From NCBI GenBank assembly GCA_001724265.1, contig MEDY01000252.1, positions 1-64,000 of the forward strand: a stretch of 64,000 nucleotides of DNA, read 5' to 3'. A program made the translations under genes and the position numbers. The notes under the pieces were generated by a model. It had not been told where the DNA came from, made no database searches, and was given only the letters and a program-made list of their open reading frames with translations. The stretch comes from Rhizaria sp. SCN 62-66. Taxonomy: Eukaryota. Below are positions 548 to 57,509 of the stretch, piece after piece; within the stretch, counting starts at the first letter, position 1, and each line of letters starts with the position of its first letter.

Positions 548-3500
548 ATGGAGAGTCTGGCGAATCTCCTCAACTACCCTGAGTTGGCCTCATCGCAACT
601 CCTCCTCAGTGGGGCGTCAGACGCTAATGCTGCGACTGTATCGATATCAGACTATCTTGATGAAACACCACTGCTGCTGTTGTACTTCTCAGCAAGCTGG
701 TGTGGTCCTTGCACTCGGTTTACGCCAACATTCGCGTCTCTGTACGGCGAAAGCAACAACCCCGCAGCATCAGAATCATCGTCCTCGTTGCTTTCTGCTC
801 AGCCTCAGCAGGCCCAGTAGCCGTTTCGTGTTCTCTTTGTTTCTGCAGACTCCTCCCGCACTGCGTTCGACGAGTACCGCGCCAAAATGCCCTGGCCCTC
901 GGTGCCGTACAAGTCCCCTCTCGCGCGCGCACTTGCAGCGCGCTTTGCTGTCGCTACCTACCCCACAGTCGTCGCAATCACGCTCAAATCGCAATATGCA
1001 CTCACCGCGAGTCTTACGGGTAACTCCGCGGTGCAGTCTAGTGGGGACTCTGCACAGAACCTCGCTGGTTTAACTGCTGCCGTGACGGCGCGTGCGACTG
1101 CGTTCGTCACGAACCCCAACGCATACGGTGACATCGTCACGCACGGAGCTGCTGGCTACCCGTGGCACTGCCCGGAAACAGTGGCGGCAGCGTCGCAGTC
1201 TAGTTTACATGGGCAGTCACGCAGCGCTGCTGCAGCGGGAGCATCCGACTTCACTGGCGGCTTCAAGGCTCTATCGGGGCCGCCGCTCCCGCCCACCAAG
1301 CTCCCGCTGCCGCTCACGGTTACCGACAGCTCCACAGCGGGCGTGGCAGCGGCCGTGAAGGCAAGGCTGAAGCGGAAGATTGCGCTGTCGGACGCTGTGG
1401 AGTGGTGCGACGCGGCTATGGGCGCTGAACAGATAGTCGCTATCCATGGGTACGTTGAATCATGATACAAAATGTGCATGATGCATTTTGCTGTGACATC
1501 GTATCTAGCATCCTTAATCACTAATCGATTAAATTGTTTGTCACTCTTTTATTTCCATATTTGTTGTTTCTTAGAACGATGCTTGGCAATCATCCCTTGC
1601 TTTTACTACTGTCAACAATGACAAACACGGAGCCAGGAGGTGAGAGTTCTGCAAAGACACGCGTACTGATATTACGTGCATGGGTTCGAGTACCTGCAGC
1701 GCTTAGCTCAAGCGTTACTACGAATATGACTTTAGCAGATAATGGAGGTGACTTGGTGTCGCTAAAGCTCTCATGCGCACAGTCCTTGCCCAAAAACGGT
1801 GCACAATCGCCGATATCCGCCACTCTTGGCAACAATGCGCTGTGTTTAGGCGTTGTTCCTGCTGATGTGCCGTTATCTGCATTAAAGCATCTCTTCGCCA
1901 TTGTTGCTGCCACACCGAACACTTCTAATCCGGACTCAAACACGAGCACAAACGCGGGTGATGCGAGTGGATGTGGCGTTGTTGTGTTCACGCTCCCGCC
2001 GTGCAAGCTCGCACGTGACGCAAGTGTCGTTGCGGGAGATGCCGGCGGCAAACGCGTGCATGTGTGGGCGCTTAGCCCCATGTATCACAATAGTTCCCCT
2101 GGTAGCGCTATGGGTTGCTCTCCGTTGCATTTGGCACCTGTTAGCGCTACTCTGTCGCTGTGCGCACTGGTGAACACCCGCAACGCGCCGCGCGCTATCG
2201 CCGCGCTCCCGCCTGCGCTGCACACGCACTACGCTAACAGCTGTTAGCGCAACGAAGCAGGCGCAAACACGGCGACGGCCATGGGTGGCACTGTCATGTC
2301 CAAGACAATGATGACTGCATTAGCCGTGGCCTAGGCCGATGGGACAGCCCGTGTGTACCCGCTTACACTTGCGGTATCTAAGCGCTGCTTAGATGGGCCT
2401 GTGCAGTGTTGTACACCGACTGCAATCGCGAACACGCCCATTCCCCAACCGTCCGCTGCTACGGCGTCTGCGCCCTCATGCAAGGCGCGTGAGCAAGACT
2501 GTGATCAGCAGCAGGGGACCGTGTTTCACATTGCTGCTCTCGGCGCACTGCCAGCAGCAGCAGCAGCAGCAGCATCAACCGCGATGTCGAGCGATGATAT
2601 TGCTGGTGCTGCTGAGATTGGTGTCTGGGAGTGTGTCACCACGACAAACAGGGCTAAGAAGCACCCACATAAGCAGACGACAGCAACAGTAAAATCTGAC
2701 TGTATCTGTTGCGCATTGAGTGATTCTGGTGCAGCCCCCCAGGAGCGTACTAGGTTGATGAACAATGCGCCTATGGTTGGTGTACGTGAGGCGACTGTGA
2801 ACACGCGTCCGTGGGAGCTGCTGACTCAGCAAGCGACAACACACGTCGCGAGCGCCAATGGCCGAGTTATGACCACTGTCGCGAACACGACTCCTGTGCT
2901 GGAACAAGATCTCATTAAGAGCGTTGATAGTCTCGATGAGTCTGGTGAGCCACAATTCGACGTCGCCTGTGACGGCGACGTCTGTTACCGTGTGCCGAAG
3001 ACCCCTCTGAAGGCCGCGCATGGCGTGGCAACCGACACGGCGCAGACTGGTCAGGTTGTGGGCGTAAACACCTCACATCCGGACGCAGTGTCCGTTGGCG
3101 CTCTGATTGCCGCCGTCATTGCGACCGACAACGGCTCCTCTGCGTGCGTGTTTTATTCGGAGCTCGTGTACTCATGCGACGTGAACATGAACAGTTCGAA
3201 CGCAAACGTTGTCCTAGCCGAGAGCAACAGCAACGCATCGTCAACAGCGCTCACGGCGACTGCAGACACGGCGTCGCCTGTGTGGCGAGTGGCCGCGTCA
3301 GACTCGAGTTTTGTCGCGCAAACGCCTTCTATCTCACAGGGCCGCGTTATCACTGCCGCTGCGCACCCCTTTGGCTTCGCGTTCATGGACAGTGTAACGA
3401 CGCAGAACAACACGAGTAGTGCCGTCGCGCAGCAAAGTCTCGCCACCTTCATCATGACGCCGATGCTGCGGCCGGTTGCGCATCTTCCGCTCCCGTCCCC

Positions 3501-3978
3501 CGCACTGTCTGCAACCCCCGCGTCCCTACTTTGGGCCGGAGATGCAGCGCTCGTGACCGCAGTGGGGACTGCTGCGTCAGTGTTTGTGACTGTGAGTCCT
3601 GCGACGGTGGCGCCCTGCTGCGCCCACTGCAACAGTCCGCTCACTTCATATCCAACTGGTAACAGCCTAAGCACCAGCGCTGCGAATGCAGCTGTGGACA
3701 GGCTGAGCTCCGAGGCAGTGGCTGTGGTGGCGCACCCACGCACGGTCACCGCGCTCGCCACGCTCTCCGCTGCCGCTGACGACCCGTGTCACAGCCCGTG
3801 CAGCGGCGGCGGCAGCGCGGAGACGGACGTGGTGACCGTGAGCAGCGACGGCTTGCTACGCGTGCTGACACGCGTGCCGCAGCGCGGGCTCTCGGCCAAG
3901 GGGGCCGCGGCGGTGGCTAAATACGGTGAGATGCGCGCCAGGGCGGTGCAGCGCAGTGTAGCGCAAAACGATGCGTGA
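548..3978 (+). CDS. Nucleoredoxin/tryparedoxin-like thioredoxin domain fused to a long C-terminal region with WD40-like motifs (~1100 aa, 3 in-frame TAG)
   Basis: Exons 548-1449 and 1575-3978 (intron GTACGT...TTAG). LLYFSASWCGPCTRFTP is followed, through TAG 818-820, by FRVLFVSADSSRTAFDEYRAKMPWPSVPY, the second half of the nucleoredoxin-type fold. More in-frame TAG at 2245-2247 and 2332-2334. WD-like ADGTARVY and SSDGLLRV. Ends TGA. Confidence 0.75.
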
Positions 3979-4087
3979 AAGCGTCAAAATGAGATAATGC
4001 GATGTATTAATCACAGATACATTGAAAGAAAAAATATTTACCTCTAGATATAATATTTATCTTAAAATACACTGCTACTTTAAAATT

Positions 4088-8629: not shown

Positions 8630-8701
8630 AGACTTGTGGTGTATCGGTTGCATAGTTCGTTAACACCGAATTGGTAGTGGGTTCGACTCCCATCAGGTCT
8701 A
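8630..8701 (+). tRNA. tRNA-Val(AAC)
   Basis: Cloverleaf: acceptor AGACTTG/CAGGTCT with A73; D-arm GTGT-ATCGGTT-GCAT; anticodon arm GTTCG-TTAACAC-CGAAT (AAC at 8662-8664); T-arm GTGGG-TTCGACT-CCCAT. A T-run (Pol III terminator) follows. Confidence 0.85.
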
Positions 8702-8819
8702 TTAACTTTTTGTTTTGGCACTCGCGCATGCCGCGCTTCCTTCCTTGTTGTTTTGCATCTCAGTCGCTTCAAATATTAAGTTTGAGGGCTAGATTTCGCG
8801 AATTAGAGCAATGAATGAA

Positions 8820-9457: not shown

Positions 9458-11888
9458 TTACGGCAGAGCGCTGCCGCTGGAGCTGACCGCCACGTCCTCG
9501 GCCTCGTCGCCGAACTGCGCGTACTGGCCGTTGCCGCCCGCCGCAACAGCGCCGCCGTGACCGGGGCCGTGACGAGCGCGGACGGCGCTGCTGGTCATCT
9601 CGATGGTGTACGTGCCGGAGCTGCTGACGTTGCCCCCCGCAGCTTCACTATGGATCGCGGCGACGTGCACGGTGCCGTGGGTGATGACACCGCGGGTGAA
9701 GTTGCGCGCGACGTAGACGCGGAAGAAGAAGAGCATGCCTCCGCAGGCGCACAGCAGCCCAGTGATGAGGTACATCATACTGACCGGGCCGGCAGGGAGG
9801 TCGAACGAGGCGCCGACGATCATAGGCACCAGCGCCTCGGCAAGGCTGACGGCGACGACGATGACCGAGAGCACGGTGCCCGAGAGCTTGATGTAGCGCT
9901 CGAGCCACATGACGCAGGCGGCGTAGAGCGAAGCCATGCAGAAGCCGAGCAGCGCGACGCAGACCCAGAGCAGTGGGACCGAGTCCGAGAAGATGGACAT
10001 GACGACCATGACGGCGGCGGCCGCGGCGACGTTAATGGTCACGAGCGTCTCGGGCACGATATACACCGACAAGGGGATACCCGAGATACGACCGATGGCG
10101 AAGAGGCCCCAGAACACGGACGAGAGCAGAGACGCTTCGTGGTCGTCCATGAAGCCGCGCTTGTTGGCGTAGGGTGCGATGAAGTGGCCGAAGCCGGTCT
10201 CGCTGCCGACGTAAAAGAAGAGCAGCGTGGCCATCAGACACAACACCAGGAACGGGTTGCCGGAGAAGCCGGCGTGCGGCACGACCCACGAGACGTTAAG
10301 TCGCGCACAGAAGTTAAGCCGCCGGCAGCAGTTGGGGTCGCCGCCAACCTGGGTGGGGAGCTCACTGTCACTGACGATGACGGCCTCGCCGTTGTTGGCG
10401 CTGACGACAGCGGTGCTCGGAGCAGCGCTGAGCCTCTGCGTCGTGTCAGCGTCGGTGGCGACAAGGGGAGGCAAGGTGACGCTGCTGTCGCCGCTGGATG
10501 CAGCCCCACTGCCGCCCCCACCCGCAGCGGCGGCGTCGGCGGCGGCGTACTCGGCGGCGTCCGACTTGGCGTCGTCCTCGGGCGGCGTGATGCTGGTGCA
10601 GTCGGCCACGGTCGGGTCGTACACAGGTACGATGTGTTCCGGGATACCGATGAGGGCGGCGGCGACCGCGCGCTCCGAGGTCTGGATGCAGTACCGGTGC
10701 GGGCCGAAGGGGCCGCGGCCGCGAATGGTGAGGTAGATGGTGATGAAGGAGATGGCGATCATGGTAATGGTCATGCTGTAGAAGCCCCAACGGTACAGCG
10801 TCGACACTAGGGGCTCGCCGTCTGGCTCAACCTCGGTCAGGAAGAACGAGATTACGATGGGCGCAAAGAAAGAGCCGACTGCAAAGCCGGCGTGCAGGGC
10901 CTGCATCATAGGCTCACCGTAGCGGCCGCAGACGCGCATCAGCAGAACCTGAATGCAATTAGGAAAAAGGAACGCATGAAAAAAATTTGAGAGATTTCAC
11001 TACAAGACACGGGGAGCTATCTCGCGTTAGGTTGTTTGTAAAGCGTACCTGGGCGAGGTTGTCCAAACAGCCCATCCAGAAGGAGCAGAGTCCGGCGACG
11101 AGCACGAGCGCAAACAGACTGCCTGCGGCGGGGTACAGTAGCGTGGTGAGCGCGCTGATGATGACGGTGGCGCTCAACGCGATCTGCGCGCGGCGCGGGC
11201 CCAACCGGTCGACGAGCTGACCGCCGGCGAGCGAACCCAAGAAGAAGCCGATCGCGCGGCCCAGGTAGGTCAGCGAGAGCGACGACGTCGAAGTGGTGCC
11301 GACCTGGCGGCCCAGGACCAGCATCGTGGGGCCGACCATTGAGAGCGACATGCCCATGGTCGCGTAAGCGAGCGCGTAGCCGCCCAGTGCGTCCCAGTAG
11401 CGGAAGAAGATGTGCTTGGTGACGTTGTGCGAGTATATGCGGTCGTTCGAGGGGTCGATCGTGGACAGCACGCCCGCCAGCGCGGCATTAATGTCGCTCG
11501 CGGACAGAAGCGCGGCTTCGTCGGCTGTGAAGCGCATCGTGGCCAGCGCGGATGACGAAGTCGCCACGTGGTCGGTGGTGTTACCGTTGCTGCCATCAAA
11601 GTTGTAGTGGGCGTCCAGAGCGCTGCCGTCGGGCTTGGGGGCGGCATCGTGCGCGGCAATGTTTTGCGCCAGGTAGTTGCTGATGTGGCTCGTGTAGCGC
11701 TGGATGGGCGGGGCCGCTGATGCAGCGCGCCGCGTGTCGCTGCTAGATGAGTCGAGGTCGACGTCGCTCAGGGACGGAGCGTGGTGCTGCCGGTTCGCGA
11801 ACGGGGAGTCGTTGTACGTATTGCCGCCACCGTTGTCATATGTTGCGGTAGATGGGTGGCCCTGCGCGGCGTAGGGGTCGCGGGACAT
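9458..11888 (-). CDS. Major facilitator superfamily transporter (MFSD4/FucP-like)
   Basis: Exons 11888-11049 and 10948-9458. Many hydrophobic helices; MFS motif-A-like GQLVDRLGPR; MQALHAGFAVGSFFAP; FFYVGSETGFG; FWGLFAIGRISG. Ends TAA. Confidence 0.85.
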
Positions 11889-12638: not shown

Positions 12639-15600
12639 TTAGTTGAAATGCTTGGCATTGTTAGTAGGTGCAATCCTACAGGTATTCGCAAACTCGACCG
12701 AGTCGAGGTACTGCGTCAGCGCGCTGGGGTTCTTCACTGCATTCTCGTGTACGAACTCCCACACTTGGGTCATGGCGCCGGCTCCGTAGCGTGCCACAAC
12801 CGCGGCCACGCGCGCGGCGCGCCGCTGGCGCTGCAGCGCCTCGAGTTCGCGGTCCGACACGAAGGCGCGGCGGAGCGCGTTGTTGCCCACGCGCGCGGGG
12901 TTATGGGTGCAGCTGACGACGTGCGCGCGGATGCACGCGTCAGCGGGGGCGCTGTAGCCAAAACAGCAGGCGCACATTACGTGCTTGCACGCCGTGCAGT
13001 CCACCTCGGCACGCGCCACGAGCGTCGACACAGCGGCGCGGCAGTGCGGGCAGCGGTCTGGAAGGGCTTCGCGCAGTGCCGTGAAGACCTCTAGATTGTC
13101 CTTTACCACTGCTGAGACGTTGGCGCGATCCGCTTGGTCTGGCAGTTGGTGCACGCCGAGACACGTTGTGCACGAAAACTCAACACCAGACACTTCTGTG
13201 AACATATTAACACAAGATAACAAAGCATCACGAAATAACGAAGGAGCATGAATGAGCATGGGTGACTAAAAATACATGTACGTGTACACAAAAAGCAGCT
13301 TGATAAACAATGGATCGATAATTGGGCATCATAATGTTGGTTGGCAACGTACCGTCAACGCGGAGCATGTGCGGACGCTGAATCTCCATGCAGTAGCGCG
13401 TCGGGCAACGGTAAAGAGTTCCCTTTTTCTGTTTGTCAAAAAAATCCCAGACATATTCCAGGTAAAGTGTGCGCAGAACATCCGGCATGATGCCCTCAAT
13501 TGGGATGTCACATAGAGACATATCTGATGTCACGTCCTCGTCTGCACAAGCAGGGCAGCGAAAGCCTGTAACACGGCACCGCTCCAGCAGGACTGATAGA
13601 CAGTCGGTGCACGTCATGTGGCAGCACTTGATCATGACGATTCCAGCGTCAGCACGGGTGAGCGCGCGGTGGCAATGCCAGCAAGCTGGGCCGGCGTTGC
13701 GCGCCACTCCAAGCTCCTCCTTGGTGCGCAGCAGATGCGGGCGGCGCAGCGTCGTTTGGAACCGGGCGACTGCTTCTGCAGAGCCTGCAACAGTCGCGAT
13801 GAGCTGTGCGGGTGTGAAATGCAATGCGCCAACAGTAACACCAAGATCCCGCGCAAGGCGAAGAACATCCGCTGGAGGCGCGTGGGGTTGAAGGTACATC
13901 ACGGTGTCAATTTCCGTCCATGCGCCTAGCTCGGCCTCAAGCTCGTTAAGGGCCGCCAAAACCTCAGAAAGCCTATCAGGTGCGCAAAACACGTCAACGG
14001 CGCGCTCTTCCTCGCGCAGGCCAAGCCACGTGGGCACACCTTGAGGTGCTTTCATCTTGTTGCTGATGGGAGTAGATTTGCCGTAAAACGAGTTTATGAC
14101 AGCTTGCAACTTACGGAGACCACCTGCGGTTCGGACGCACTTGAACGAGTGCTCCGAGAGCTGGAACCGATGCACAACGAGAAGTTCGTCAACCAACGCG
14201 CGTGCGCGGCGAATTTCGTCTTCGCTTGGAGAGGACATTGCGAGCTCATAGCGACCGCCGTAGGGTTGGCCGTTGACATCCTCGCGTGTGATGGCAATGT
14301 GGTTGCTCTCGCAAAGGCTGACTAACGCAGAGATAAGGTTGGAAGCGATTGCATTGCCAATGTCGGAAGGAAAGTAGAAGCGAACCGAGTGCATAGTCTT
14401 GATCTCAAACTCTTGGGCGCTATGCTCGGGCTGAGGCATCACATTGAAGTCTGCGTAGACTTTGATTTCATTTGGCTTGCGGCGGGGAGACAGAACCATT
14501 CCTGGCTTGTATAAGTTGCTTTCAAATTTTTTAAGCGCAGGATGAAGAGACCTTGAGTCCTTATATGCACAGCGGTACTAAACGCGGAAGAAAGAGAGTT
14601 GCCGAGTCCAAACACCTTGCACGTATCGCTTGTCGTTGGAAAAATCAAGCAGTTGCTTGCTGTGGCTCTGCATCTTATACTTAGCATCAGCAATGTTTGT
14701 CTGAAGTTTTACGCGGATTTGTTCATCACTTGTAACGCGATAGTAGTCCCTGAGCATGTCGAATGCATTTTGCGCACTCTCAACAGACTTGAACATAACA
14801 GTTACGTCGTACCGCTTCTCTGGCTCACTGTTTTGCTTTGCCTCCTCCAAGCTCAGAGCAATAGCCCGTGCTAAGTCATCATCAATGTCCCCACCGGCCA
14901 TTGGAGGTCCCGCTTTAGCGGCATTAACGACCGGTGCATTGATCTGCTGCTCGGGATGAACATCTGCGATTGCATCATCTTCGTCATCATCACTGTCATC
15001 ATCAGCGTCATCTTCGCTCTCAGAAGTACTGCTATTGTCCACGCCCTCAGGGGTGTGCTGTTTAGCTTTCCGCCTGCGCAGCTGGCATGCTTTAACGCGC
15101 GCGCAAGGGGCCGCGGGTGTTACTTCCTTAATGGTAATGTGTGCTACAGCAGACTCCAGGCCAAGTTCAGAGATGAACAGCTTGATAAACAAGTCCTCAG
15201 AGCGAGCGAACCGCTCAGGCACATTACTCAGTACCACTGTCGTTTTTTCTCCCGCACATGCCACATCGTTAACTGCCATGCCTTCGCCGCAAAGTGCAAC
15301 GCTGTTGACAGTCATGCCAAACTGTAAAACGTCCGTGAGGCACACCAAGGCAGCATGTTCGGCAAATTTCAGTAAGGTGTTAAGTGCACGACTACGGACC
15401 TTTGTGTCGGTGTGAAGAACGCAAACTCCTTCTGCGTCAAGCTTAAGCGTACAGCCAACCTCCGTGCTTAACTTTGTCACTGATTCCTCATCAGGAAATA
15501 GATGCGCTAAGATACCAGGCTGCATTGGTGCAAATGCTGCTTCGCCACGCGACCGCTTGCTCTGCACATTGTTGACCATGGGCAGCGACAGCGCGGGCGG

Positions 15601-28700: not shown

Positions 28701-28732
<32 letters not shown>

Positions 28733-28857: not shown

Positions 28858-28946
<89 letters not shown>

Positions 28947-42551: not shown

Positions 42552-45500
42552 TTACCACTTGGTCCGCCCCGCCACTCCCGCCGCCGCCGCAATCATCTCC
42601 AGCGCCCGTGCCATGACCACATCCCGCCTCTCCTTCACGGCCAGCTCCTCCGTCTTTGGCATGACTGTGGAGGCCCAGAGCCAGTGCGCCGCGGACGCCT
42701 CTCCCAGCGGCAGGCGCAGGCACGGCGGCGCGGCAGTAAGCGCCAGCGTCGCAAGATCGCTCTCGGCCAGGCTCGCGGTGTCGAGCCCGAACAGGTATCC
42801 GAGGCCCGTGTCAGGTACTGACTGCAGCGCGCTGAGGTGACGCAGCTGCGCAAACATCTCGTCGTCCTCGCCGTGGCCGCCAACTTGCGCCCCCACGGCG
42901 GCCCCTATCCCGAGGATATGCTTCCCGAGGGGATGTGTCTGCATGGCATGTGCGCCGACGCTCTTCTCCACCAAATTAAATGCATGTTTCATCTCCTTGA
43001 GGTGCGCTGATGGGGTGAAGCGAGGACCAAAGCTGTTTGCTTCTGTGTCGCAAGCGCGTGAAACTGTGAGCATACGCAGCGCAGTGGCGTGGCAAAGCAG
43101 ACGCTCAGCTCCGACATAAACCTTGCTGGTATCAATCCTGTTGTCACCGCTACTATCGCTTCTGGTGCTGCTTAAAGGAGAACCGGAGTTGCGCAAGCAC
43201 CGCTGCTGTGCGCGCTTAGCCAGCGCCGTAATGGCGTTTGCACGCTCTTGAGTTGCAGTAATCTTCTCGGTCAAAAAGACATAGTCCCCATTGCGCTCAC
43301 CAGACTCGCGCGGAAGTACGTGCGAGAGCTGCGGCAGCGGCTCCGTCACCAGCACCACTTTATCAGGCACCGTGACAGCGGGCGCACTTGGAGCGTCGAT
43401 AGGTGTTGTCTCGACATCCGAACGATGGGCAATCGTGAGCTCGCCAGTTTCGCAATCGCGAATTTCTTCAGTGATCGCCGTGACGATAATATTCATCGAC
43501 TCGTTTTCGATTACCGTCTTGCCAGTCTGCTTGATCGACTTGACAACATCGCGCGTGGTCGCGGCCAACGCGGCGTCGCCCAGGGCGCCCACGGTCGCGA
43601 GCTGCGCCGTCGAAAGCGGGGCCAAGGAGCGCGTGACAGAGACGCTCGCGTACGACACGCAGGCACCGTAACCGCGGCCGCCAATGTGCAGCTGCAGTTC
43701 CAGCCAACAGCCTGAAAAATACATGTACAACAAAAGCAATTGAACAACGGAAGCATGCAAAAAATTAGCGCATGTGATTATCATTAGTTCTAAAAAAGAA
43801 TCAAGACGTGTTAAGTTGAGAAAAAACTGTTGATAATTGGTGTAATAATGTTATTGTACGTATATGTAATGATAAAGGAAACCCTATGCTACTATAAAGA
43901 TCTCCGTTGTTCACGTAAGACTTACCTGTGTAGTCAACATCCTTGCCAAAAAGATCGTCTACATCAAACGTCGGCGACGTCTTCTGCAACATATTGCGGT
44001 TATTGTGCCTCAGCACGTTGACCCTCTTGTCCCCCGTTTCGGGGTCCGGCGAGCGCAGCACAAGAATAAGCGCCAACTTGTGGGAGCCCCAGCCTCGGTC
44101 GTTCCAGTGCGCGCTCACAGTCACTTCCAGCGGGCGCTCGCCGCGCAGGAACGGGTCCGTGACCGCGAGCAGACGGCGGCTGGTGGCTTGGTTGTGATAT
44201 CTGTTGCCGCTGGCATAGCCAGTTAGAGTCACGGTTTCCGTAACTGGAATATAAGCTGCAATCTGCAACATTGCAGCAGCGGGGACGACGACAAAGCTAC
44301 GCTGCTGACTGTGATCGCGGTCACTCACCGCCGCAGCTGCACACGTACGGTCGTTGACGGTGGCACTCTTGCGCGCACGGCCCGCCTCGACAAGCAGGCG
44401 GTACAGCGGCAAGCGCGCGACGTGCGCGTGCTCGCTCATCACGTACGGCTTCTCGGCCATCACCGCGCCCGCGCTCGCCAGCGCAGCCGCCGTCACGCCC
44501 GCAGCCGCTGCCTTGCGCTGCAAGGTCGCGGACTGAGAGTTAACTGCTCCATCCCCAGGCTGCAGACTCTTGTGCTGCTCCATCGCACGCTGATTCAACC
44601 TCTCAGACAGCTGGAACATCGCGCGGCACGCATCCGTGTCAGCAGCCTCCGCAGTGACAGCGAGCTGGCTGAACGCGCCCGCGCGAAACGGTGGTGTCGC
44701 TGCTGCAACGCGGAGCGCGCGCAAAAGCGCATGATGCTGCCTAATTTGCGCGAACTGCAGCAGCAGCGACGGCTTGGATGCATGCATGGCCTCGCTGTCA
44801 TGCTCACGCGGCTGGGACTGCTGTCCCGGATTGTTGACGCGCGTCTGCGCAAGGAAGCGAAGCGCGTTAACCGCGTCAAACTCGAGCGCGCGCTGCGAGT
44901 GCGGATACACCAGCCGCTTGTGCGCGCAGCCGTTGAGCACGGGCCACCGCAGCAGCGGCAGCGGGGCGCGGGGCGCGCTGATGGGCACCGCGATGCACGG
45001 GAAGTAAGTCAAGCCGCTGATATTGCCATTAGTGCTACCGCGACCATGACATTCACGTTGTTCTTTTGCGGCTGCATAAAAGTGCGCGTTATTCTTAGTG
45101 CCGTAACAGATGTCGCCGGAGCAACTGTCTCGGTCCTTGCTAATCGCCAATGCGGCGCGACGAGCAGTGGTGTCTTCCCACTTTTCGATAATATATCCAG
45201 CGCTGCCTCCGGTGCTTGCGGACTCGTTGCGTCCCACTTGCGTGCTGTCAGAGCTAACACTGGTGTTGGTGCTCTCGTTGGCGCTGCGTAGATGCGCGCG
45301 CGAGTGCGCCAACGGCGGACAGTTGCGGCGCTTCTCGTGGTCGAAGTGCTCCGAGAGTGCGCTTGCACACATCTCCACAGTGCAGTCGCAGTGGTCCAGC
45401 CTGTAGTACGAGGGCGTCAATTCCCTTGACCTGCCCAGTACCAGATCCTCATCGTAAAAGGGGTTGTCTACGCGGTCGATAGCCGCGCCGTACGTCCCCA

Positions 45501-46965
45501 CCTCACATGAAGCGGTCTGCGAGATCGGAACCGATGCAAGTGGAAGCCTCGCACAAGTAAGAAGAGCACCGCACTGCGGGTCGCCGCAAAGGCTATTGCA
45601 GCACACGTCGTACTCGTAGTGGTGCGCAAACACGCTGGTCATCGCGAGCGCAAGCCGGCTGGCCCTGTAGACGCTCGCGCCGTCAGTGACGCCAGGAACG
45701 CTTGCGTCCACAGCAGGGCCGCCTGCGCTGCCCCGCAGCGGGAGCGGGGCGCTGGCGACGAGCCACGTGAGCGAGTCGTTGGGACACGTTGACGGCGCTG
45801 CCACTAGAGCAGCACGAGCGCGCGCGCGGTCATCGCCGCGCTGATTAAGCTTGCAATTGTCGCTGCTTTCTGCGACAGCTGGACAGCTGCTGTCAGTGGC
45901 AGTTGCAGCGATCGCCGCCTCCACAACAGTGTTGACATAGGCGTCCGCGGTGCTGACACAAGCAGTCGTCGCATTCGTCACCGCATTGGTGTCATCGATA
46001 CTCGCGACCGTCCCAACGCTATCAGTCCCAGCGTTCGTGCTGTGGGCGTTGTGGGCGTTGCGGAGCACTGTGAGATCGTCCTGAGTCGGCGCCGCAAACC
46101 CTCGGGTGAGCGTAACGACCACATCGCAGACGTCAACCGCGTCAGCGTTTGCACCCGCACTCGCACTCACAGGGACGCTTGCGCGGAGAGTTGCCGTCGA
46201 GTTCGATTCCTCGCTCGCGTTGTTCGCATCCGTGCTCAAGTGTAGGTAGCCGCCGTCGCTGTGACGGTACCAAAGCTCCCACCAGCAGCCCGCCAAGCTA
46301 ACTTGATTGTTCATATTAACGTTTGTGGTGCTGGGATACGTTGCGGAACTTAGCCACTGCGCAAGCTTGTCGTAGCTCACGGCCGCCTCGTACTTGTAGC
46401 CACCGCCTGTTGCCGCTGCCGCGGCGGCGACGGGCCCAAGGTCAAGCGGGAGCGCGCGCGTCTGCGTCCGCGCGGGCGACACAAGCGCGAGAAATAGCTT
46501 CGCGTCGCTGCGGGGCGCGTGCGTGGCCGCGAGCGAAAGCGACAGCAGCCGCTCGCTCGGCAGCAGCGGGTCCGTGAGCGGCAGGAAGCGCTGGAACGGG
46601 GCGCCATCGCCGCGGAACGCCTCCAGAGAGGTCAAATCAGTCTGCTCTATCCGCTTACTCTTGGCAGCTACGCACTGTACGGAGTCACTGTTGCTAGCGG
46701 CAAGCTGTGGTGGCAGAGAGTGGAAGTAGTGGGAGAGTCGAGTCACGGAGCGCGAAGGAAGGTACTCTGCGATGCACATCTTGGCCTCAAATGGAAGATC
46801 CTCCGGGATTGCTGATAACAAACATTCGTAGAGCGGAAGTCGGGCAAGGTGGCCGCGCTAACTAGGCATTGATGGTGCGCTGTTATCGACTGTCGCTGCT
46901 GAGATAGCGCCAAGATGCTTGCTCCAGCTCGAGCTGCTTGGAGCCGTCGCAGCGACCGAGGTCAT
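42552..46965 (-). CDS. Hypothetical protein (~1400 aa, 1 in-frame TAG) with a duplicated F-box-like motif
   Basis: Exons 46965-43926 and 43711-42552, phase-compatible. The N-terminal ATG is joined through TAG 46858-46860. No family recognised. Ends TAA. Confidence 0.65.
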
Positions 46966-48869
46966 TGTAGCAAAGATAAGAACCTTTAAAGAAAATATAC
47001 AAGGATTCCGAATGGATATGACTTAAGGTGGTGAGTTCATTCGCTTAAAAGTTCACACTGACGAAATATGTGACTCTAAATGGCAACGAAGTCTGATACA
47101 AGATCCGATTGCGAGAGCGACGTCGCTCAAATAGAGTCATTGATCGGGTTTTTCGTAATTCAAAGAAATATCACTAAACTATACAGATTTTTAATCGCTA
47201 ACAGTTAATAATATCTCCAACAGCAAAGAGTGGCGTGCATAATATTAAGTTGTAGTTCAGCACAAATCTTTCGCGTATTTTGGTATCCTCCACCACAAAC
47301 CATTTTTGAGCTGTCAAACCGTTTAAAAACGTTGCTACATAACACATTGGCAAGCCAATTAGCAAAACCCGCACGATGAATGTGAAGCTATACTTAACTT
47401 TTATGCGATGTATACTTAAAGAAGCTATCAGGGATTGATAATATAACATAGTCGTGTGTATATCTCGTGTTACGTGATGGCAAAGGGTGCCGTGAACGCC
47501 CGCGATCACTCGCCGAACGAATGAATAACTTGCTTCAGTCATAACATGTGCTGCACTTCGCAGCAGCGCATGGCGGTACTGCGCTTTGTCACGCGTCAGC
47601 CAGTTTATGCCCCCCCACTTCGTGTCTTCGCTACAGCGTGTCCGGTGAGCCTGCTGCGCGCGCGATGGACCGCAAAGTGGCAGACTCGTATCAGTGGCAC
47701 GCAATTGGAGGAACCATTGACGACTTAGTGTTGACTTCTTTGGGTTGTGCTGTCAAGCCAAGAGTTACAAGAGTAGTATAGGGTAGAAGCGGATTATTAC
47801 TCACTTGGGTAAAATCTCGCTATATACTACTCAAGACTCGCGTTGGCATCGCGAAAGTGTTGTACAAGTGTACATCTCATGCGGTAGCTTTGCACACTCG
47901 ACCGCCTTGCCGGACACGGCAACAAAGAGATGGAGGTGAGCCAAGCGTGTCTGCATAACAGCAAGGTTCCCGTTTCCTTGTGTCAAACTGAGTCAGATGC
48001 AGAGGCGCCAGACCAGCCGGGCAAGATCTCATGATATGAGAGGAGATTCTACAGAGCACACGCAAGGTCCTCAAGTCAGCAATGGATGAGCTGCGCGCAG
48101 GCGGCGCTCGACACCCGCATGGGTGCCGAGAAGACTACCGAAATCATTGTGCAAGAAGCAAGCGCACCACCAAAATGCAGGTCCGGCATATTCAATAGGA
48201 AGCACAATATTAGCGCATTGAGGAAACGCTGCGACTCAACACACACTACTAAGTGATTCATGATGATCAGTACATATACAGACAGTTGCCGAGAAGCCTG
48301 TACATTCATTGCTGCATAAGGTGCGCAATAAATCTCTTCTGCACAGTACAGATTAGAAGTAAGGTTTATATCTCTGGCACCCAAAATGCACGTTGTTTGA
48401 GCCTGCAACCAACGTTGTCTCGCTTGGACACGTCCTGGATCATTTAACCTCGCTCACAGTGCGTGTGCCTGGGACTGTCAAGCAACAGTTAAAGTATAGG
48501 AATAGCATCCCAAGATAATATATCCGAGTGCGCCATCTATCTCTCTCAGCTGTATGTCGGGGTACTGTTTGGAGTCTATACATGTGTCCAATGTGCGATG
48601 CTCCGGCGCAACTCTGGAATGTCTGACTAAACTTATATTTATCTCGGTCAACTGATCGTCAGCATGGCTTTATTCTGCATACTTACTTGGAAAATGCGTG
48701 TTTTTATATTTGACTAATATTATTCTTTGACGCGACTCTTTTCTCGATGTGATCGAACGACTAACTTCGCTCTCCTTTGCTCCCGTCTTACCTCGTAGTT
48801 GCACATTCACGCTTTTCCATCCACTTCTTACCTACATAGCATATTCACTACTGTCAGAGCACCCCCATT

Positions 48870-50942
48870 ATGTCCTGCTCCGCGCACATCTCTGTGGCTG
48901 CCTCACAAGGTGATCCCCCTTTGTCTGTGGCGACATCGCCCTCCCCCGCCCATGCCCACCCAAGCCCCGTCCCAATCTCAAGCGCTTGTTATAACAGCGT
49001 CCCCGCCCCCGGAGCTCGTGCCCGCGCCGAGCCTCACGCCCCCGCTCTTACAGCGCTGTCTCCGCTCGTTTCCGCCGCGCTGTCCAACCCCATGGCGGCG
49101 CTCTCGGCCCCCGTGTGCTCGGACGCGCGCCTGCCACCGGAGCCGAACCTGGCGCTGCTGCGGAGCGCGCTGACCAAGTACCGCATCCGGCTCTTCCGCG
49201 ACTGCGAGCAGGAGAAAGCGACGGTGCGGGCCATCTTCGAGGACGGCATGGGCAGCTACGCGACCAACCGCCGCGGCGTGCAGTGGATGCAGCAGCGCCG
49301 GCGCCGCAGGGACCCGCACCACAATAATGACAGCAGTAACAACAATACGAATGTGAGTGCCACGGGTACTCAGTGCTCTGCAGAGGGCGATTCTTCTCAC
49401 ACTCACCCTCCGTCTGAGGGTGGCGCGGTGCCGTACACCCCCTTAGACCCCACCGAGGTGCTCTTGTTCCCGCCCGAGACCGCGGAGCAGGCGCAGGCGC
49501 GGCGGCAGTTCTTCGACACGGCGATGGCTTCCTTTGCGGGCTACACGGCGTGGTCGCTGTCGGACGCCGCGCTGACCGACATCAAGAACTACTGGCAGCC
49601 CGAGGTGGACCGTTCGGTGTTCCTGGTGTGCGAGGACCGCGTCTCGGGCGAGGTTGTGGGCACTATTGCGCTGCAGCCCGTGTCCAGGTACGGCCACTGA
49701 TTGTTCGCATATGAGAACAAAATGTTATTTAACACTGTGACTAAACTACGATGCATGATTTTGTGCTAGAATTAACTTGATTTGTCTCTTGGCTGCTTTG
49801 GCGTTGCTCGCTTTCTTTCACTCTGACACGTTCTCTTTTGTTTGGGATCAACACATTCTCTATGCAGGGCTGGTGGCTTCTACGGCAAGGCGTTGGAGGA
49901 CCAGCAGGCGTACTTCGAGAAGATTGCCGCGTACATCAACGACGCCGAGCAAGAGCTCAGCTCCGACGCCAGTCTCGGTGACGCGAGCGCACTGCGTGCG
50001 GCCGTGGACGCCAAAGTCAAGCCGCTGTGCCGCCCGGCGGTGCCCGGCATGGCGGGGGACGCGTGGGACGACGTCACGTGTGCCCGCGTGTACACTGCAC
50101 TCAAGGGCAACAGCGACGCCATTGAGCGCACGAAGGCCGCCGGTGGCAGTGCAAGTGCCGGCGGCGCCGCAGTGTGTCAGAGCAGTGTGCTCGCTGACTG
50201 TGCGCGCGTGTATCGTGCGTCGTCCGAAGACGATAACACTACCGTTGCTTGCGATACTGTCTCCTGTGCTGCCAGCAGCACGAGTAGCGAGCATGAGTTT
50301 GACGCTATCCGCACTCGCTACTTGCCTTTGCACCCTGATCTGTGGGAATACCACCCCTGTGCACACCTCGTCAACAAGAACAGCACCGGCGACTGCGCCA
50401 GCGCTGCGGCGAATGACAGCGACTACTAGTCCGAGGTCGCGGCCACCACAGCGTTCTTGTCGTCGCTGCCGCCCGCGCAGGTCTTCTCGCCATACAACGA
50501 GGCCGAGATGCGCCGCGTGTCTGTCGCGCGCGCGCACCGCAGGCACGGTGTCGCGCAGCTCCTCGTCTACACGGCGCTGGAGCTCGCGCAGCACGTCTTC
50601 GGCTACCACGCGGTGCACCTGTCGACGGCTGAGTCGATGGCCAGCGCCGTCCGGTTCTACCTGCGCACGGGCTTCGCGGTGGCCTACTCGCGCATCGGGT
50701 GCGGCGACACATCGCAGTGGCCGTGTGTGCACTTCCGCTGGCCGCTGGGCGCGGTCGGCCGGCAGCTGGGCCCGCTGCGGGACATCAGGGCTACAACGTT
50801 CTACGAGCTCGACTACGAGGAGTTCTACGGAGCCGACAGCGAATATGCTAGCAGCAGCAGCAGATACGGTGACAGTAACAGCCAGGAGAAGAGCGCTGCC
50901 GCTGGTGCTGTTGATACTAAAGAGAGCCTGAGTGCTGAGTGA
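48870..50942 (+). CDS. GNAT-family N-acetyltransferase (NAT8-like), split by insertions (~630 aa, 1 in-frame TAG)
   Basis: Exons 48870-49687 and 49868-50942. YRIRLF...VRAIFEDGM; LTDIKNYW...FLVCED...VVGTIAL; then, through TAG 50427-50429, EAEMRRVSVARAHRRHGVAQLL (acetyl-CoA motif) and AVRFYLRTGF. Ends TGA. Confidence 0.8.
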
Positions 50943-51637: not shown

Positions 51638-52865
51638 TTAGTTTGCGCCCTGCGCGAACTGCTGCGCCATGGTGGGCGCGGTCTCGACGCCGCTGACGCC
51701 GCCGGGCCCCGTGGAGAGCAAGTATGCGACGACGACGATCACTGAGCGCGGCATCGACACGCAGAAGGGACGGTCCGTGTTGGTGCAGTGTGTCAGCGCC
51801 GGAGCCAACACCTCGGCCAGGCTCTGGATGCGGCCCTGGTACGTCATGCCGGAGCCGGAGCCGCCCGCGACGCTGTTGCGCGACACCGACACCGACGCGC
51901 TGCCGCCGCGCCCGCCCCCGGCCGTGGAGTCGCTGCCGGTCATGTACGAGTCCGGAGAGGGCGTGCCGGGCCGCTTGCAGTCCGCAAGCCCGCGCACGAG
52001 CGTGATGACGTACGTCAGAGCAGCGTACTTGCGCTCGTGCAGCTCGTTGAGCACCTTTCTGGCCCAGCCCAGTGGCTCGGCGAAGGCGACGCGCCAGCCG
52101 GGCGCCGCCAGCAGCGGCTCGGGCAGCGACGAGGCCCAGTCGAGCAGGCACAAGCCCAGCGCGGGCAACGGGATAACCGCCGCGCCCGCCAGGCCGCCCA
52201 CCGTCACCGCGCCGCTGCCGGAGCCGGAGCCGGAGTGGTGGCTCGCGTTGCTGTTGTTCTCGGTGTTCGCGGTCGCGGCCGAGGGGTGGCGCTGTGCGAT
52301 AAGCGCGCGGAGCAAGTGCGGCGCCGAGTCCAGCACGGCGTGCACGGCAGCCGTAGCGTGGAGGTACTGCGCGCGCGCGTTGAGCGAGGCCAGCTGGTGC
52401 TGGTGATGCTGGTGATGCGCCAGCAGCGCCGTCGCCGACGACGTCGCAAGCGTCGCCGACGTCACGGTGTAGGTCGTGTTGGAGGGAAACAGCGAAACGG
52501 GCGGCACCAGCGCGACGCCGCTGCCGCTGCCGCCGCCGCCGCTGCCGCTGTTATTGTTGTTGCTGGTGGCGGCTGCGCTCACCGACGCGTGCGGGCCCCC
52601 CGCCGCGGCGCAGTGATTCGCACTGTTGTGGATTGCGAGGAGCGCGGCGAGCGAGCGGGGCCGGCCGTCGCTCTCGAGCGCCGCGGTGGTCACCACAGTG
52701 CGGCACACCGCCGCGGGGGGAAACAACGCCAGCGCGGCGGCTGGGGACGACAGCGGCGACCCGTCGGGGTGGTTCGCGATCGCGTCCAGCAGGTAAAACA
52801 GCTCTTTCGGCACACCCGTCACGCCAAGCGCGGGGCTGCCGCCATTCTCGCTTTCGCCTGCGCAG

Positions 52866-52905
<40 letters not shown>

Positions 52906-53114
52906 TGTTGCTGCTGTGGAGAGCCGTGGTGGCGGCGGTGTTGGCGGGCAGCGCGGCGCCGAGCCACGAGGGCCGGAGCGCGGCCGTGAAGCGCACCACG
53001 TGCTCCACGGGCTGCGCCTGCGCCGCCCAGAAGCGAGGGGCCGAAAAATGCGCGGCCGCAGCCGCGGCGCGCGAGGCGGGGTTGCCGGCCATGCGCACCG
53101 AGCCGCTTGCGCCC

Positions 53115-53152
<38 letters not shown>

Positions 53153-56100
53153 GCCGTGGTTGAAGCTGCTGCTGACGCCCACCGAGCCCCCGCCGCCGCC
53201 GTTGCTGCCGGCGTCGAAGGGGGAGTTGGCGAACGAGCCGCTGTTGTTGCCGTAGTCGCCGTAGCCGTCGTTGTCATGGCCGTGGCCGCCGTAAGGGTCA
53301 TCGAACACCGCGCCGCCGCGCCCGCTGCCGGAAACGCCGCCGCCGCCGCCGTGGCCGTGGCCGTGGCCGCTCATCGACGCGCCGCCGCCGCCGTTGTTGC
53401 CCGATTTGAAGAAGTTCTTGATCTTGCGTAGCGTGCCCGTCGCGGCGCCGCCGTCGAGCGCAGCGATGCTCGCCGTCGCCGCCGCACGCTCACGCTCGCG
53501 CTCGCGCTCGCGCTCGCCGCTGGAGAGGGAGCCGCCGGCGCCGACGCTGGGATAGTGCCCGCTGCCGCCGCCCGCCGCCCCCACGGCCCCGCCAGCGCCG
53601 GCGGTGTTGCTGCTGCCGCCGCCGCCAGAGGAGCCCTCGTCGCCGCTGCCGTCTGAGTCGTCGTCGGCGTCCTCGGCCGTGGCGGCCTGTTGCAGCAGCC
53701 ACGCAGACACGCCCGTCTGCCGGTCCGCAGGCACGTCGTGCGAGCCTGGCTCCTCGGCGTACTCGCGGATCGTCGCGTCCTGCGCAGGGTTGGTTCGCGA
53801 AAATAAAGAGGGAGGTGTTTGTGTGAGTGCAGTGTTTGGGATTATATGACATGACTTAAATATGAAAACAAACTAGGGGACACAGAGCGTTTCATCACAA
53901 TGTTGATAGCTGTAAACGCGATACATTAAACTATAAGTGAGGGATATACGCACCTGAACGCGAATTACCACAGCGGCCGCCAGCAGCGCGCACGCCGGTC
54001 CGCCCATGGCACCGCTGTCAGTGCCGCTTTCGCCACTACTTCCAGCGGCGGCGGCGGCGGCGGCGGCGGAGCGCGCGCGCGTGCGTAGCGTGTCCGCAAG
54101 CCCCAGCGCGGCCTCGATGCGCTTGGCGGCGAAGGGGCCCGCGGCGTGGCAAGTGACCGTGAGCGCGACGTCCTCGCCCGGGCAGATGAGTCCCGAGGCG
54201 TGGGAGACGGTGAGCCAGAAGGCCGAGTGGTCCGCGCAGGGCAGCGTGCGCGAGCCCAGCGGCAGCGACAACGGCTGCGTCGGGCCCGGCAGCGACGACA
54301 CCAGCGCAGGCACAGCGCTAGAGCCAGAACCGGGGGCTGAGGGGGTACTTAGATTCCCGTCTTGTTGTTGTGGCTGTTGTTCGACGGCCCACTTTGCGCT
54401 GAGCACCACGGCCTCTGGGCGGAGCGGGTCCACGGGCTGCAGGTGGCCCAGGCTGTGGCCCATCGCCACCGCGGCCGCCAGCGATGTGGGCAGCACGGTG
54501 AAGCGGACCACGCTGTTGCCTGTGTTGCGGAGCAGGATGGGGAAGTCGAGACGCGCACCGAGCCGCATGTCGCGCCAGTGTACGGCGGCGTGCGAGATCG
54601 AGACCCTCGGCGCGACGGAGGGCGCCGAGAGCTGCGACAGGTGCGCCTCGAGCGAGCGCCGCGTGCTGGCCGACTGGCTGTGCGCGCGGAACGCCGCTGT
54701 CAGCGCCACAGGCTTGTGATCCGACAGTAGCAGCTCCGCGCGGCGGTAGTCGCCGGGCGCGAAGTCGTTGCGGTTCAGCGAGCGCCACTGGATGCGGTCG
54801 CACCACGACGGCACGCGCACCTTCTTGTTCGCGCGGCGCTCGTAGTCGTGCGTACCCGGGGTGTATTTGTACGTCGGCGGGAAGGCGATGGGCAGCTCCT
54901 GGAACGCGGCGAAGGCGCGCCCGCCGGCCTTCTCGATGAGGAGCTGGTCGCGGCGCAGGAGCGCGTCCAGGTCGTTGTTGGCGATGAGCTTGTGCACCTC
55001 GCTCACCGAGGGGTGCGCGACGCGATAGTTGAGGTCGCCCATCCAAATTACATGGCTAGAAAGAGAACAAATATGACAAAGTGAGGAAAAGTTAGAAAAT
55101 AAATTAAACGCATGATATTTTTGAGATGAGTAACAAACAAACAGAAACATTAAATCTTTAGAATCTGATCTTAGATAAAAGCGATATAACTGCGTACCTG
55201 TGATCGGTGACGTGGAGAGGCACGTTCTGGCCCCCGTATCCGCCGCTGCCGCTGCCGCCGCTGCCGCCGCCGCTGCCGCCGCCGCCGCCGCTGCCCTGCT
55301 GGTACAGCGCCGTCAGTGGCGCGGAGCAGGCCGAGTAAAACCCCCCCGCGCCGCCGCCGCCGCCGCTGGCGTAGTTGTAGCCGTCGTCGTCGTCATCGAG
55401 CCCCGATCGGCGGCCCGCCTGCGAGGGCAACGCCTGAGCCTGCGACTGTAGCACGCGCGGGCTGACGCCGGTGGTCGAGTCGAACCGCAGGCGCCGCATG
55501 ATGGCGCTATAATGGGCGTTGCGCGCCTGGACCTTCTCCTGGTGGGCGGCGATGTGCGCGTTGAGAAAGCACACGCTCGTGTCGTTAACCGTGAAGGACA
55601 CGCCGATAGCACCCTTGTTGCCGCCGACGCCCATAAGCCCGATGCCGACCTTGCCGGTCCGCACGGCGCGCACCTTGTGCAGCAGCGACGTCCGCACCCA
55701 CACGCACAGGGCTAGTCCGACCAAGTGAGTCGACGCGATCATGACGTAACCGTCGGCGCCGGGGCGCGGCCGGCCCACGCGCGCCTCTTGGCTCGCGAAG
55801 CGGCCCAGCGCGCGGCGCAGCGAGTCCTCCGTGAGCGCCTCCCAGCGGCCGGTGGCGTGCGGGTCCACGAGCAGGTTCTTGGCCGAGAGGTCGACGACCT
55901 CCTGGAAACCCATCGCCACAATATCGGCCGGCCGCGCAATGCTGCTGGAGCTAGTGCTGGAGCTAGAGGAGCTGTTGGCGCTGGGGCTAGGGCTGGAAGG
56001 GTCGCCGCCGCTGGAGTACGGGGAGAGAGTGAAGTTTGCACCGCTGCTCGCACTATTGGGACTCGAACTCGTGGTGTTCGCGGTGTTGCTGTTGTTGTTG

Positions 56101-57509
56101 TTGACGATGGGGGGGCACAGCCAGTCGTCGAGCTGCTCCGTCGTGGCAGGCCGCTTGCCGTTGACGTTCCAGCTGCCCGCCCACACGGTCACTGGCACCG
56201 TCGCCATGGCCGTCTAGTGGGCGCGGATCGCAAGCTGGTGGCCCACCCAAGCGGGCGGAACCGGTCCCGCGTACGGCGCCGGCGGCGGCAGCGACGCCGA
56301 GGCGGCGATCGCGGCGGCGGCCGCCGACGGCAGCGCCGGCTGCTGCAGCGACTGCAGTTGAGACTGCAACATGAGTGGCTGTGGGGATTGTGAGTTGTTG
56401 TGGGGAACGGGGCTGGGGATGGTGTCGGCGGCCGAGGTGGGACACATCATGCGTAAGTAGCTCGGCAAGGCGCTTACACCGCCACTTACATTGCCAGACG
56501 ACGATGACGACGACGATGACGCTGCGGCGGCGGCGGCGGCGGTGGACATGGTGGGGCGTGCGGGCGGCGCCGGCCGGCTCGCATTAGGGTGCATGTTGGC
56601 CATGTTCGCACTAGAGCTAGAGCCAACACTCAGCGTGTTGGAGTTGGTATTGTGGCCAGAGCCCGCGCTAGCGTTGACTGCAGGAGAGAAAAGTCCGTTG
56701 CTGATGCGCGAGCCCGCAAACGCAGGCCCTTCACTGGTACCGGTACTCGCACTGCCGGAAGCACTGCTGGAACTACTGTTGGAACTGCTGGAACTCGTGG
56801 TGGCACTCGCAGGGTTACTCGTAACCGTGTTGGAAGCGACCGGGGCAGCGAGCGCGAGCTTGAAGCCCCCCGCAGGCGCCGCGACAGCGCCAGCCCCGGA
56901 ATGAGCTCCGCTATTCGCGCTGGCGTTATAACTCGGCGTACCCGCACCCATGACACTCACGCTGCCCACGTTGTTGCTGCTACTGTTGCCGCTGCCGCCG
57001 GGGATGTGCAGGGTCATGCCCGAGGTCGCCGCCGCGGCCGCCGCCGCCGCGGGCGCGCGGTTACGGCTGACGCTGAGGTGCGCGTTGAGCTGCCCCGGCG
57101 CGGCCTGTGTGAACGGCAGCGCGGCCGTCGCGGGGGACACCGCCGCGCCGCGCGCAAAGGGCAGCGTGCCGCGGGACGCCGACGGGTGCGCGCGCGCGAC
57201 CTGCTCCATCGCCGTCGTGGTCGCAGTGAAGAACTGCGCGAAGGTCTCGTCGTCCAGCACGTCCACGGCGGGAGTGCTGTGGTCCGCAGCGCTCGCGTTG
57301 CCGCCGCTGCTGCTGCTGACGGCGCTGTTGGGGCTGGCGAGGAGATCAAGAGGCGAGACGACGCCGTGAGCAGTTGAATTTGCACTATTAGCGTGGGCCT
57401 TGCTGTTGTTTGCAGAGCTGGTTTGGCTGGCAAAGATAGCGAAAGGGTCGTCGCTGCCGCCTGGGCTGGCGCCGGCGCCGGCGCTGGTGCTGTGGCTAGG
57501 GAACGACAT
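51638..57509 (-). CDS. OCRL/INPP5B-like inositol polyphosphate 5-phosphatase (5-phosphatase + ASH + RhoGAP-like; ~1850 aa, 1 in-frame TAG)
   Basis: Exons 57509-55198, 55055-53954 and 53779-51638. GSWNVNG, GFQEVV, GNKGAIG, IWMGDLNYR, FPPTYKY, PSWCDRI; ASH-like ILLRNTG; RhoGAP-like GVPKELFYLLD. TAG 56214-56216 lies just before the catalytic domain. Ends TAA. Confidence 0.9.

Follow-up and report, generated by a model that had tools for sequence, protein, structure and literature searches.

UAG as a very probable sense codon, decoupled from UAA, in an uncultured GC-rich eukaryote from wastewater

Does UAG still mean stop in the organism from which this DNA comes, or is it read as a sense codon while UAA and UGA go on terminating translation? 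The question is raised by a 64,000-nucleotide stretch (contig MEDY01000252.1, positions 1 to 64,000; hereafter the window), in which an earlier note, made from the letters alone, had listed thirteen TAG triplets in frame within six genes. All thirteen are present at the positions and on the strands given there, and every one of them is in phase with a long reading frame that neither TAA nor TGA interrupts. The window comes from the nuclear genome of an uncultured wastewater and bioreactor eukaryote whose DNA is GC-rich and poor in introns. This is concluded from its eukaryotic genes and spliceosomal-type introns and from the occurrence of its sequence in bioreactor, wastewater and sludge metagenome runs of several studies (dated 2015 to 2025); its genes are densely packed on both strands, and its guanine-plus-cytosine (GC) content is 53-70% across 4-kilobase (kb) bins. 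In all likelihood this organism reads UAG as a sense codon and has decoupled it from UAA. The earlier claim of a translated UAG alongside UAA and UGA as terminators is supported by ungapped alignments with relatives at five sites, by two folds that need read-through and by the absence of TAG from all fifteen modelled gene ends.

Relatives, folds and assemblies across the TAG sites

Five of the sites (17137, 16951, 14578, 19447 and 19309) were tested against uninterrupted proteins of relatives that are 51-60% identical. Three of them belong to a degenerate DEAH-like helicase gene with a UIM and a RING/IBR-like C-terminus (12639..18279, minus strand), whose last exon ends with TAA at 12639. The relative's protein P0001 (1,106 residues) matches this gene with 58% identity over 1,103 columns and is ungapped at both of the upstream TAGs: opposite the first (17137..17139, minus strand) it carries E, within a block that is strongly conserved on both sides, and opposite the second (16951..16953, minus strand) it carries M, in a variable stretch. 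The third TAG (14578..14580, minus strand) is spanned by P0009 (223 residues; 56% identity, E 6e-92), which has T at this position, following 24 identical residues in a strongly conserved stretch. Pfam and PDB matches were dropped as proof of continuity across 17137 and 16951, as only motif I is recognised by them; it was P0001 that provided this proof.

The helicase-like protein (13231-18279, minus strand) is unusual in its own right. It keeps motif I (GKT), and the corresponding region of DHX16/DHX8 was matched at E 5e-5 in PDB, yet no Pfam helicase model matches and only about 70-150 residues align with PDB DEAH helicases. Pfam finds the UIM, and the protein has the appearance of a degenerate DEAH helicase to which this UIM and cysteine clusters of RING/IBR-like type have been fused.

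A second gene, whose 2OG-Fe(II) oxygenase domain is C-terminal and spread over two exons (18968..21780, minus strand; intron 19308..19178; TAA end at 18968), holds four TAGs, two of which fall within the region covered by the relative's protein P0006 (151 residues), which spans the oxygenase domain. The tail of exon 1 aligns with it without gaps, placing the TAG at 19447..19449 (minus strand) opposite D45 (E 2e-23). The TAG at 19309..19311 (minus strand) is the last codon of exon 1, in phase 0. Since the exon 1 alignment ends at N88 of P0006 and that of exon 2 begins at G92, the window codons T, P and TAG fill the interval D89-A90-D91 exactly, which sets this TAG opposite D91. The splice donor AG/GTACGC (the slash marking the exon end) follows directly after the TAG, and the codon therefore stays in the exon. 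Within the domain it separates the HxD motif of exon 1 from the distal histidine of exon 2; the Pfam profile 2OG-FeII_Oxy_3 matches exon 2 with its positions 45-98 (E 1.1e-7) and the exon 1 tail with its positions 3-38 (E 0.0054, below the Pfam cutoff). An active oxygenase needs the codon at 19309 to be translated. The protein of the relative is continuous where the window has this 131-nucleotide intron (19308..19178); either the intron is, as it seems, present in one organism and absent from the other, or the relative's gene call read through it.

A tryparedoxin/nucleoredoxin-like gene (548..1465, plus strand) that ends with TGA provides a further fold. Its product matches Pfam Thioredoxin_8 at residues 53-155 (E 1.2e-15), and the TAG at 818..820 (plus strand) falls inside the tryparedoxin fold, after the WCGPC active site and before the next conserved strand. 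Tryparedoxins in PDB align across the site as one domain (query residues 43-148), from before WCGPC to past the MPW motif. Judged by these alignments, the TAGs at 818 and 19309 both lie inside single catalytic folds that would be complete only with read-through.

At another site the comparison is internal to the gene. A gene that contains an internal repeat and is of unknown family (42552..46965, minus strand; probably two exons, 43801..47022 and 42552..43850; TAA end at 42552) carries a TAG at 46858..46860 (minus strand), 35 codons past its likely start. At the position of this TAG the C-terminal copy of the repeat has E (E 2e-6), in an alignment that extends 14 residues upstream of the TAG. 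The two repeat copies, at 43843-44475 and 46033-46965 (minus strand), have diverged and share 27% identity over 150 residues.

For the sites at 2245, 2332, 19624, 20782, 50427 and 56214, support comes from continuity of the frame together with coding-like GC on both sides. The first two (2245..2247 and 2332..2334, plus strand) lie in a gene of unknown family (1618..3978, plus strand) that ends with TGA; Pfam assigned no family to it, and a search for protein relatives returned only the window's own fragment. The frame continues through both, a polyA-library contig covers 2245, and at 2332 two independent DNA contigs (X3 record 1 and X4 record 9) match the window exactly. In the oxygenase gene, the TAG at 19624..19626 (minus strand) lies upstream of the oxygenase domain and that at 20782..20784 (minus strand) joins open stretches of 349 and 385 codons, with frame continuity and identical DNA contigs in both cases. 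A GNAT acetyltransferase gene (48840..50942, plus strand; TGA end), recognised by Acetyltransf_1 (E 1.6e-10) at residues 215-283 of the frame 49827-50939, has its TAG at 50427..50429 (plus strand), 12 codons ahead of the detected part of the GNAT domain, with 200 and 170 open codons on its flanks and the frame continuous across it. The last, at 56214..56216 (minus strand), lies 14 codons ahead of the phosphatase domain of an inositol polyphosphate 5-phosphatase gene (51638..57515, minus strand; introns 55197..55056 and 53953..53780; TAA end at 51638) in which Exo_endo_phos2 is matched over two frames. The GC content at third codon positions upstream of this TAG is 0.88, and the site is a weak one, because translation could in truth begin at an ATG three codons downstream. 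A further TAG in this gene (53873..53875, minus strand) is in frame only by chance, inside the 174-nucleotide intron; it is no sense codon, and leaving it uncounted was correct.

Assembly error was among the findings that, according to the earlier note, would overturn its reading. Independent assemblies were compared over 800-20799 (20 kb), which holds ten of the thirteen sites, using runs X3 and X4 from two other studies. DNA contigs span nine of these ten sites in X4 and seven in X3, and the letters of every TAG spanned are identical. Across the same 20 kb, six differing letters were listed, none of them at a TAG; site 818 falls outside the listed contig pieces, though its bin shows depth. 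Since the TAGs are identical in independent assemblies, neither assembly error nor a mutation private to one strain is the explanation.

Gene ends, other stop triplets and transcripts

If UAG alone has changed its meaning, TAG should be set apart from TAA and TGA, and the gene ends are in keeping with this. The fifteen modelled ends comprise ten TAA (9458, 12639, 18968, 26839, 37856, 38254, 42552, 51638, 60395 and 61888), five TGA (1463, 3976, 4088, 25475 and 50940) and no TAG; the earlier statement that all fifteen are TAA or TGA stands, and its division into eleven and four becomes ten and five. The position of the gene end is backed by homology for PRMT5, and loosely for the oxygenase gene, only: the TAA that had been placed at the homologous C-terminus of PRMT5 holds there as far as the alignment envelope reaches, and the end of the relative's oxygenase protein is no more than about a dozen residues away from that of the window protein.

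The gene models were said to contain no in-frame TAA or TGA and no frameshift, and this also holds. The sole TAA between homologous halves of a gene, at 36200, is in frame inside the GT-AG intron of PRMT5 (36184..36306, plus strand; 123 nucleotides), with PRMT5 domains on both sides; we did not adopt a reading of the halves as separate genes. Elsewhere the reading frames are delimited by TAA or TGA.

Counts over the whole window point the same way, with a modest signal. Among 3,656 stop triplets (827 TAG, 1,033 TAA and 1,796 TGA), junctions in the same frame with at least 200 open codons on each side number five for TAG, one for TAA and one for TGA; of the five at TAG, one is intronic and one antisense. 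Under a model of random nonsense mutation built from the codon usage of the window, TAG has a share of 0.59-0.62 of the single-base changes, and the probability that thirteen out of thirteen would be TAG is 1-2e-3, a figure that does not yet take into account the lack of frameshifts or the conservation with relatives.

Micro-introns that remove the TAGs from the mature transcript, another finding named beforehand as able to overturn the reading, were sought as in-frame GT..AG spans with the observed type of donor and a GC fraction below 0.5. Twelve of the thirteen TAGs are without an enclosing in-frame candidate, and the intron candidates at 14578 would remove sequence that is collinear with P0009. 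An intron with its donor at a GTACGG (about 741) and its acceptor in the TAG at 818, at the AG, was considered and rejected: at 80 nucleotides it would break the frame, and the scan gave no in-frame candidate there.

RNA data bear on two sites. In a polyA library (X8), one contig (record 26, covering 2042-2330) shows the TAG at 2245 unchanged and unspliced, and another (record 30, covering 14485-14684) shows the TAG at 14578 unchanged; regions without coverage in X8 were taken as uninformative. The RNA runs X6 and X7 were set aside as probably DNA, and X6 covers no TAG site.

Amino acid, mechanism and alternative explanations

The residues that stand opposite the TAGs offer a guide to what UAG may encode. 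The orthologues give E at 17137, M at 16951, T at 14578 and D at both 19447 and 19309; the internal, paralogous repeat gives E at 46858, a weak 4.3-bit stretch of similarity to S. pombe synaptojanin gives E at 56214, and distant PDB tryparedoxins give K or A at 818. Summed over these eight aligned sites, BLOSUM62 scores are 17 for E, 13 for D, 6 for Q, 4 for K, -17 for Y, -18 for L and -23 for W, and over the orthologues only they are 10 for D and 6 for E. None of the eight residues is Q, the sum for which comes third after E and D, and site 818 lies within a Gln-rich run. None is L and one is M, so the expectation for UAG=Leu failed. By reasoning of the kind set out in PMC5304391, a CUA anticodon is one change away from that of Glu-CUC or Gln-CUG and two from that of Asp-GUC. 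Since acidic residues fit best and CUA is a single step from Glu-CUC and Gln-CUG, Glu is favoured and Gln comes next. On these alignments we would give UAG=Glu about an even chance, with Gln as the main alternative; Leu, Trp and Tyr appear unlikely. The earlier note had named no amino acid, and the residues opposite the TAGs suggest that it is acidic, probably Glu, and not the Gln or Leu of the examples that it cited. Eight sites are too few to settle the identity of the residue.

As to mechanism, a dedicated tRNA with a CUA anticodon would read UAG and leave UAA unread, while an eRF1 with lost or weakened recognition of UAG would allow it to do so, as suggested by what is known of such codes (PMC5304391, PMC11687900). 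The tRNA in question could be a copy of tRNA-Glu(CUC) altered by one base to CUA.

We consider it highly likely that this explanation as a whole is right, namely that UAG is a sense codon by way of a CUA tRNA and a changed eRF1, with UAA and UGA as stops and Glu as the best guess for its meaning. A number of observations weigh against it. Six sites (2332, 19624, 20782, 50427, 56214 and, bar one RNA contig, 2245) have continuity of the frame as their sole support, and the TAG at 56214 could be explained by the start ATG three codons downstream. Fifteen gene ends may leave room for occasional termination at UAG. RNA contigs cover two of the ten sites in 800-20799, and these are assembled contigs from a library possibly containing DNA; one X8 contig must be either unspliced or DNA, because 14 nucleotides of it run into an MFS intron. 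Tests of codon-usage log-odds and of the best of six frames, made on 40-codon flanks and underpowered, did not separate TAG from TAA and TGA (with a margin of 0, both flanks passed at 25 TAG, 17 TAA and 21 TGA). The window, which is 64 kb only, carries neither a tRNA(CUA), its sole tRNA being Val-AAC, nor an eRF1 gene. Finally, Glu is only the best guess, because residues of several kinds stand opposite the TAGs (E, M, T, D, D, E, E and K/A) and 818 lies in a Gln-rich run.

How well do other explanations account for the same observations? UAG might have a dual role, being read as sense inside genes and as a context-dependent stop elsewhere (compare Condylostoma, karyorelict ciliates, and UAA in Blastocrithidia), or it might be subject to inefficient natural suppression. 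Fifteen gene ends are compatible with a share of TAG of up to about 20% of termini, and in-frame TAG is rare, at an estimated 13 per roughly 15,000 modelled codons, as expected early in a reassignment. Yet none of the fifteen ends is TAG, and read-through is needed by six of about eighteen genes, at up to four sites in one of them, which would be very costly under inefficient suppression. Nor does inspection by eye reveal a common downstream context (such as CAR-YYA) after the thirteen TAGs, where the next base is C in five cases, T in three, A in three and G in two. We therefore regard a dual or suppressed UAG as improbable.

That the TAGs are true stops, in pseudogenes or split genes whose continuity arises by chance in GC-rich DNA, strikes us as very improbable. 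Such DNA does contain long open non-coding frames, as at 38566-40740 antisense to tepsin, codon-usage tests are indecisive and the downstream ATG can explain 56214, but five TAGs sit within ungapped alignments to relatives of 51-60% identity and two within single domains; in-frame TAA, TGA and frameshifts are absent, the restriction to TAG is poorly matched by random nonsense (P 1-2e-3), and the letters are the same in assemblies from several studies spanning 2015 to 2025. Loss of the TAGs from the message before translation, whether with introns that are very short or atypical or through RNA editing such as a U-to-C change that yields CAG, is likewise hardly credible. The TAG at 19309 abuts a real splice donor, that at 818 can resemble a 3' splice site, and RNA coverage is thin; against this, relatives place exactly one residue, with no gap, opposite each of five TAGs, the donor after 19309 keeps that codon in the exon, twelve of the thirteen TAGs have no in-frame intron of the observed type, and TAG is retained in the polyA-library contigs at 2245 and 14578. 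Translation of UAG as a sense codon is thus the explanation that we prefer.

The window, its relatives and known codes

Besides the genes for the tryparedoxin-like protein, inositol 5-phosphatase, GNAT acetyltransferase, 2OG-Fe(II) oxygenase and PRMT5, the window encodes a PALP+CBS (cystathionine beta-synthase-like) protein, a protein kinase, KIF1-binding protein, a TXD17-like thioredoxin and the start of proteasome subunit Rpt1. The only Rfam match in the window is its sole tRNA gene, tRNA-Val(AAC) (8630..8701, plus strand), which is not a suppressor. Look-alikes of PRMT5 were assigned to Eukaryota only, with mixed phyla among them. Five introns were examined, four on the minus strand (11048..10949, 55197..55056, 19308..19178 and 53953..53780) and that of PRMT5 on the plus strand. 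They are of spliceosomal type, about 100-174 nucleotides long, far richer in AT than the exons and present at about one per gene; their donors are AG/GTACGC, AG/GTACGG or AG/GTGCGT and their acceptors end in AG. The common donor AG/GTACGC, with its variants GTACGG and GTGCGT, is unusual and could help in placing the lineage.

Low-complexity tracts rich in Ala, Ser, Gly or Asn occur in nearly all proteins of the window, for example in those at 51638-57515 and 38254-40722 (both minus strand) and 33512-36202 (plus strand), and the high GC content yields long spurious antisense frames, such as 38566-40740 (plus strand) opposite tepsin. The kinase domain (27713-32518 and 26839-27567, minus strand) is interrupted by a huge in-frame, GC-rich, low-complexity insert in which a run of Asn extends over about 35 residues: positions 50-132 of the Pkinase profile match residues 42-129 of a 1,601-codon frame, a DFG-like motif appears only near residue 1570, and profile positions 161-263 match in the next exon. 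DNA contigs of other runs show two short-sided joints between distant GC-rich places (3820/10522 and 6885/17598), which are most likely due to low-complexity repeats or other organisms, not rearrangements.

The relatives may share the code. In a public protein collection, where genes of the window itself are present as fragments (P0002-P0005, P0007 and P0010), their orthologue of the helicase gene is divided among at least three called proteins: P0001 stops near window residue 1161, residues of about 1180-1400 belong to P0009 and P0008 begins near residue 1424, while the window gene is continuous at these breaks. The longest contig of P0009 differs from that of P0001 and P0008, so the pieces possibly come from more than one assembly. 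The breaks fit in-frame stops of the relatives' own, which, on protein calls, hints at a reassignment shared across the clade. As for the relatives' DNA, a metagenome scan gave only L001 (3.3 kb, 100% identical to the window), and scans of genome_contigs and viral_contigs gave nothing. We put forward, tentatively, an undescribed non-ciliate lineage of bioreactors with at least two species, in which UAG would encode Glu with UAA and UGA as stops. To our knowledge, such a code is not among the NCBI code tables.

UAA and UAG are described as changing their meaning together nearly always, with a split in few nuclear lineages (PMC5304391, PMC11687900 and PMC10553269). Of the UAG-only cases that the earlier note had cited, Iotanema (Gln) and a rhizarian (Leu) are found in the literature, with the correction that the rhizarian is an insect-dwelling sainouroid and Iotanema a fornicate (PMC5304391). 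For Iotanema spirale (Fornicata) the same source describes a code of the NCBI table 15 type, in which UAG=Gln and both UAA and UGA terminate, along with a change in the eRF1 GTS motif. As in the window, UAG alone is sense there, at low frequency, and UAA is the main terminator (PMC5304391); the aligned residues of the window organism, which is GC-rich and from wastewater, favour in contrast an acidic meaning over Gln (E 17 vs Q 6). The rhizarian, exLh (Sainouroidea), was obtained from the bug Lygus hesperus and reads UAG as Leu (PMC5304391). It resembles the window organism in a UAG-only reassignment outside ciliates with UAA and UGA as stops, and differs from it in habitat and in the amino acid, since Leu is absent from the eight aligned residues and its BLOSUM62 sum is -18.

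Phyllopharyngean ciliates have, according to PMC11687900, reassigned UAG to Leu once and to Gln twice, with UAA as the preferred stop. They are alike in that UAG is decoupled from UAA and in that more genes end with UAA than with any other stop (10 of 15 ends here). Unlike them, the window bears no sign of a ciliate, with its GC content of 53-70% and introns of about 100-174 nucleotides, and the amino acid is probably another. Macronuclear genomes of ciliates are usually AT-rich with tiny introns. Oligohymenophorea sp. PL0344 reportedly uses UAG for Glu and UAA for Lys. For peritrich ciliates and Blastocrithidia, both UAA and UAG are given as Glu in PMC11687900 and PMC12153298. Were Glu right here, the meaning of UAG would be the same as in PL0344, the peritrichs and Blastocrithidia; in those organisms, however, UAA is also reassigned or dual, whereas here it ends ten of fifteen genes and is never in frame outside an intron. 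A search of the literature, excluding supplements, brought up no publication that deals with this organism or with a non-ciliate code in which UAG=Glu is the only change.

Because standard-code gene calling cuts the genes of the window organism into pieces, eukaryotic bins from wastewater would be mis-annotated. If it is true that the residue is Glu and that UAA and UGA are kept as stops, the code table would be a new one. An organism that is GC-rich, does not look like a ciliate and uses UAG as sense would be a further natural case of co-adaptation between eRF1 and a tRNA(CUA), and every new case in which UAG and UAA part ways tests whether their coupling is a mechanistic constraint or a matter of history.

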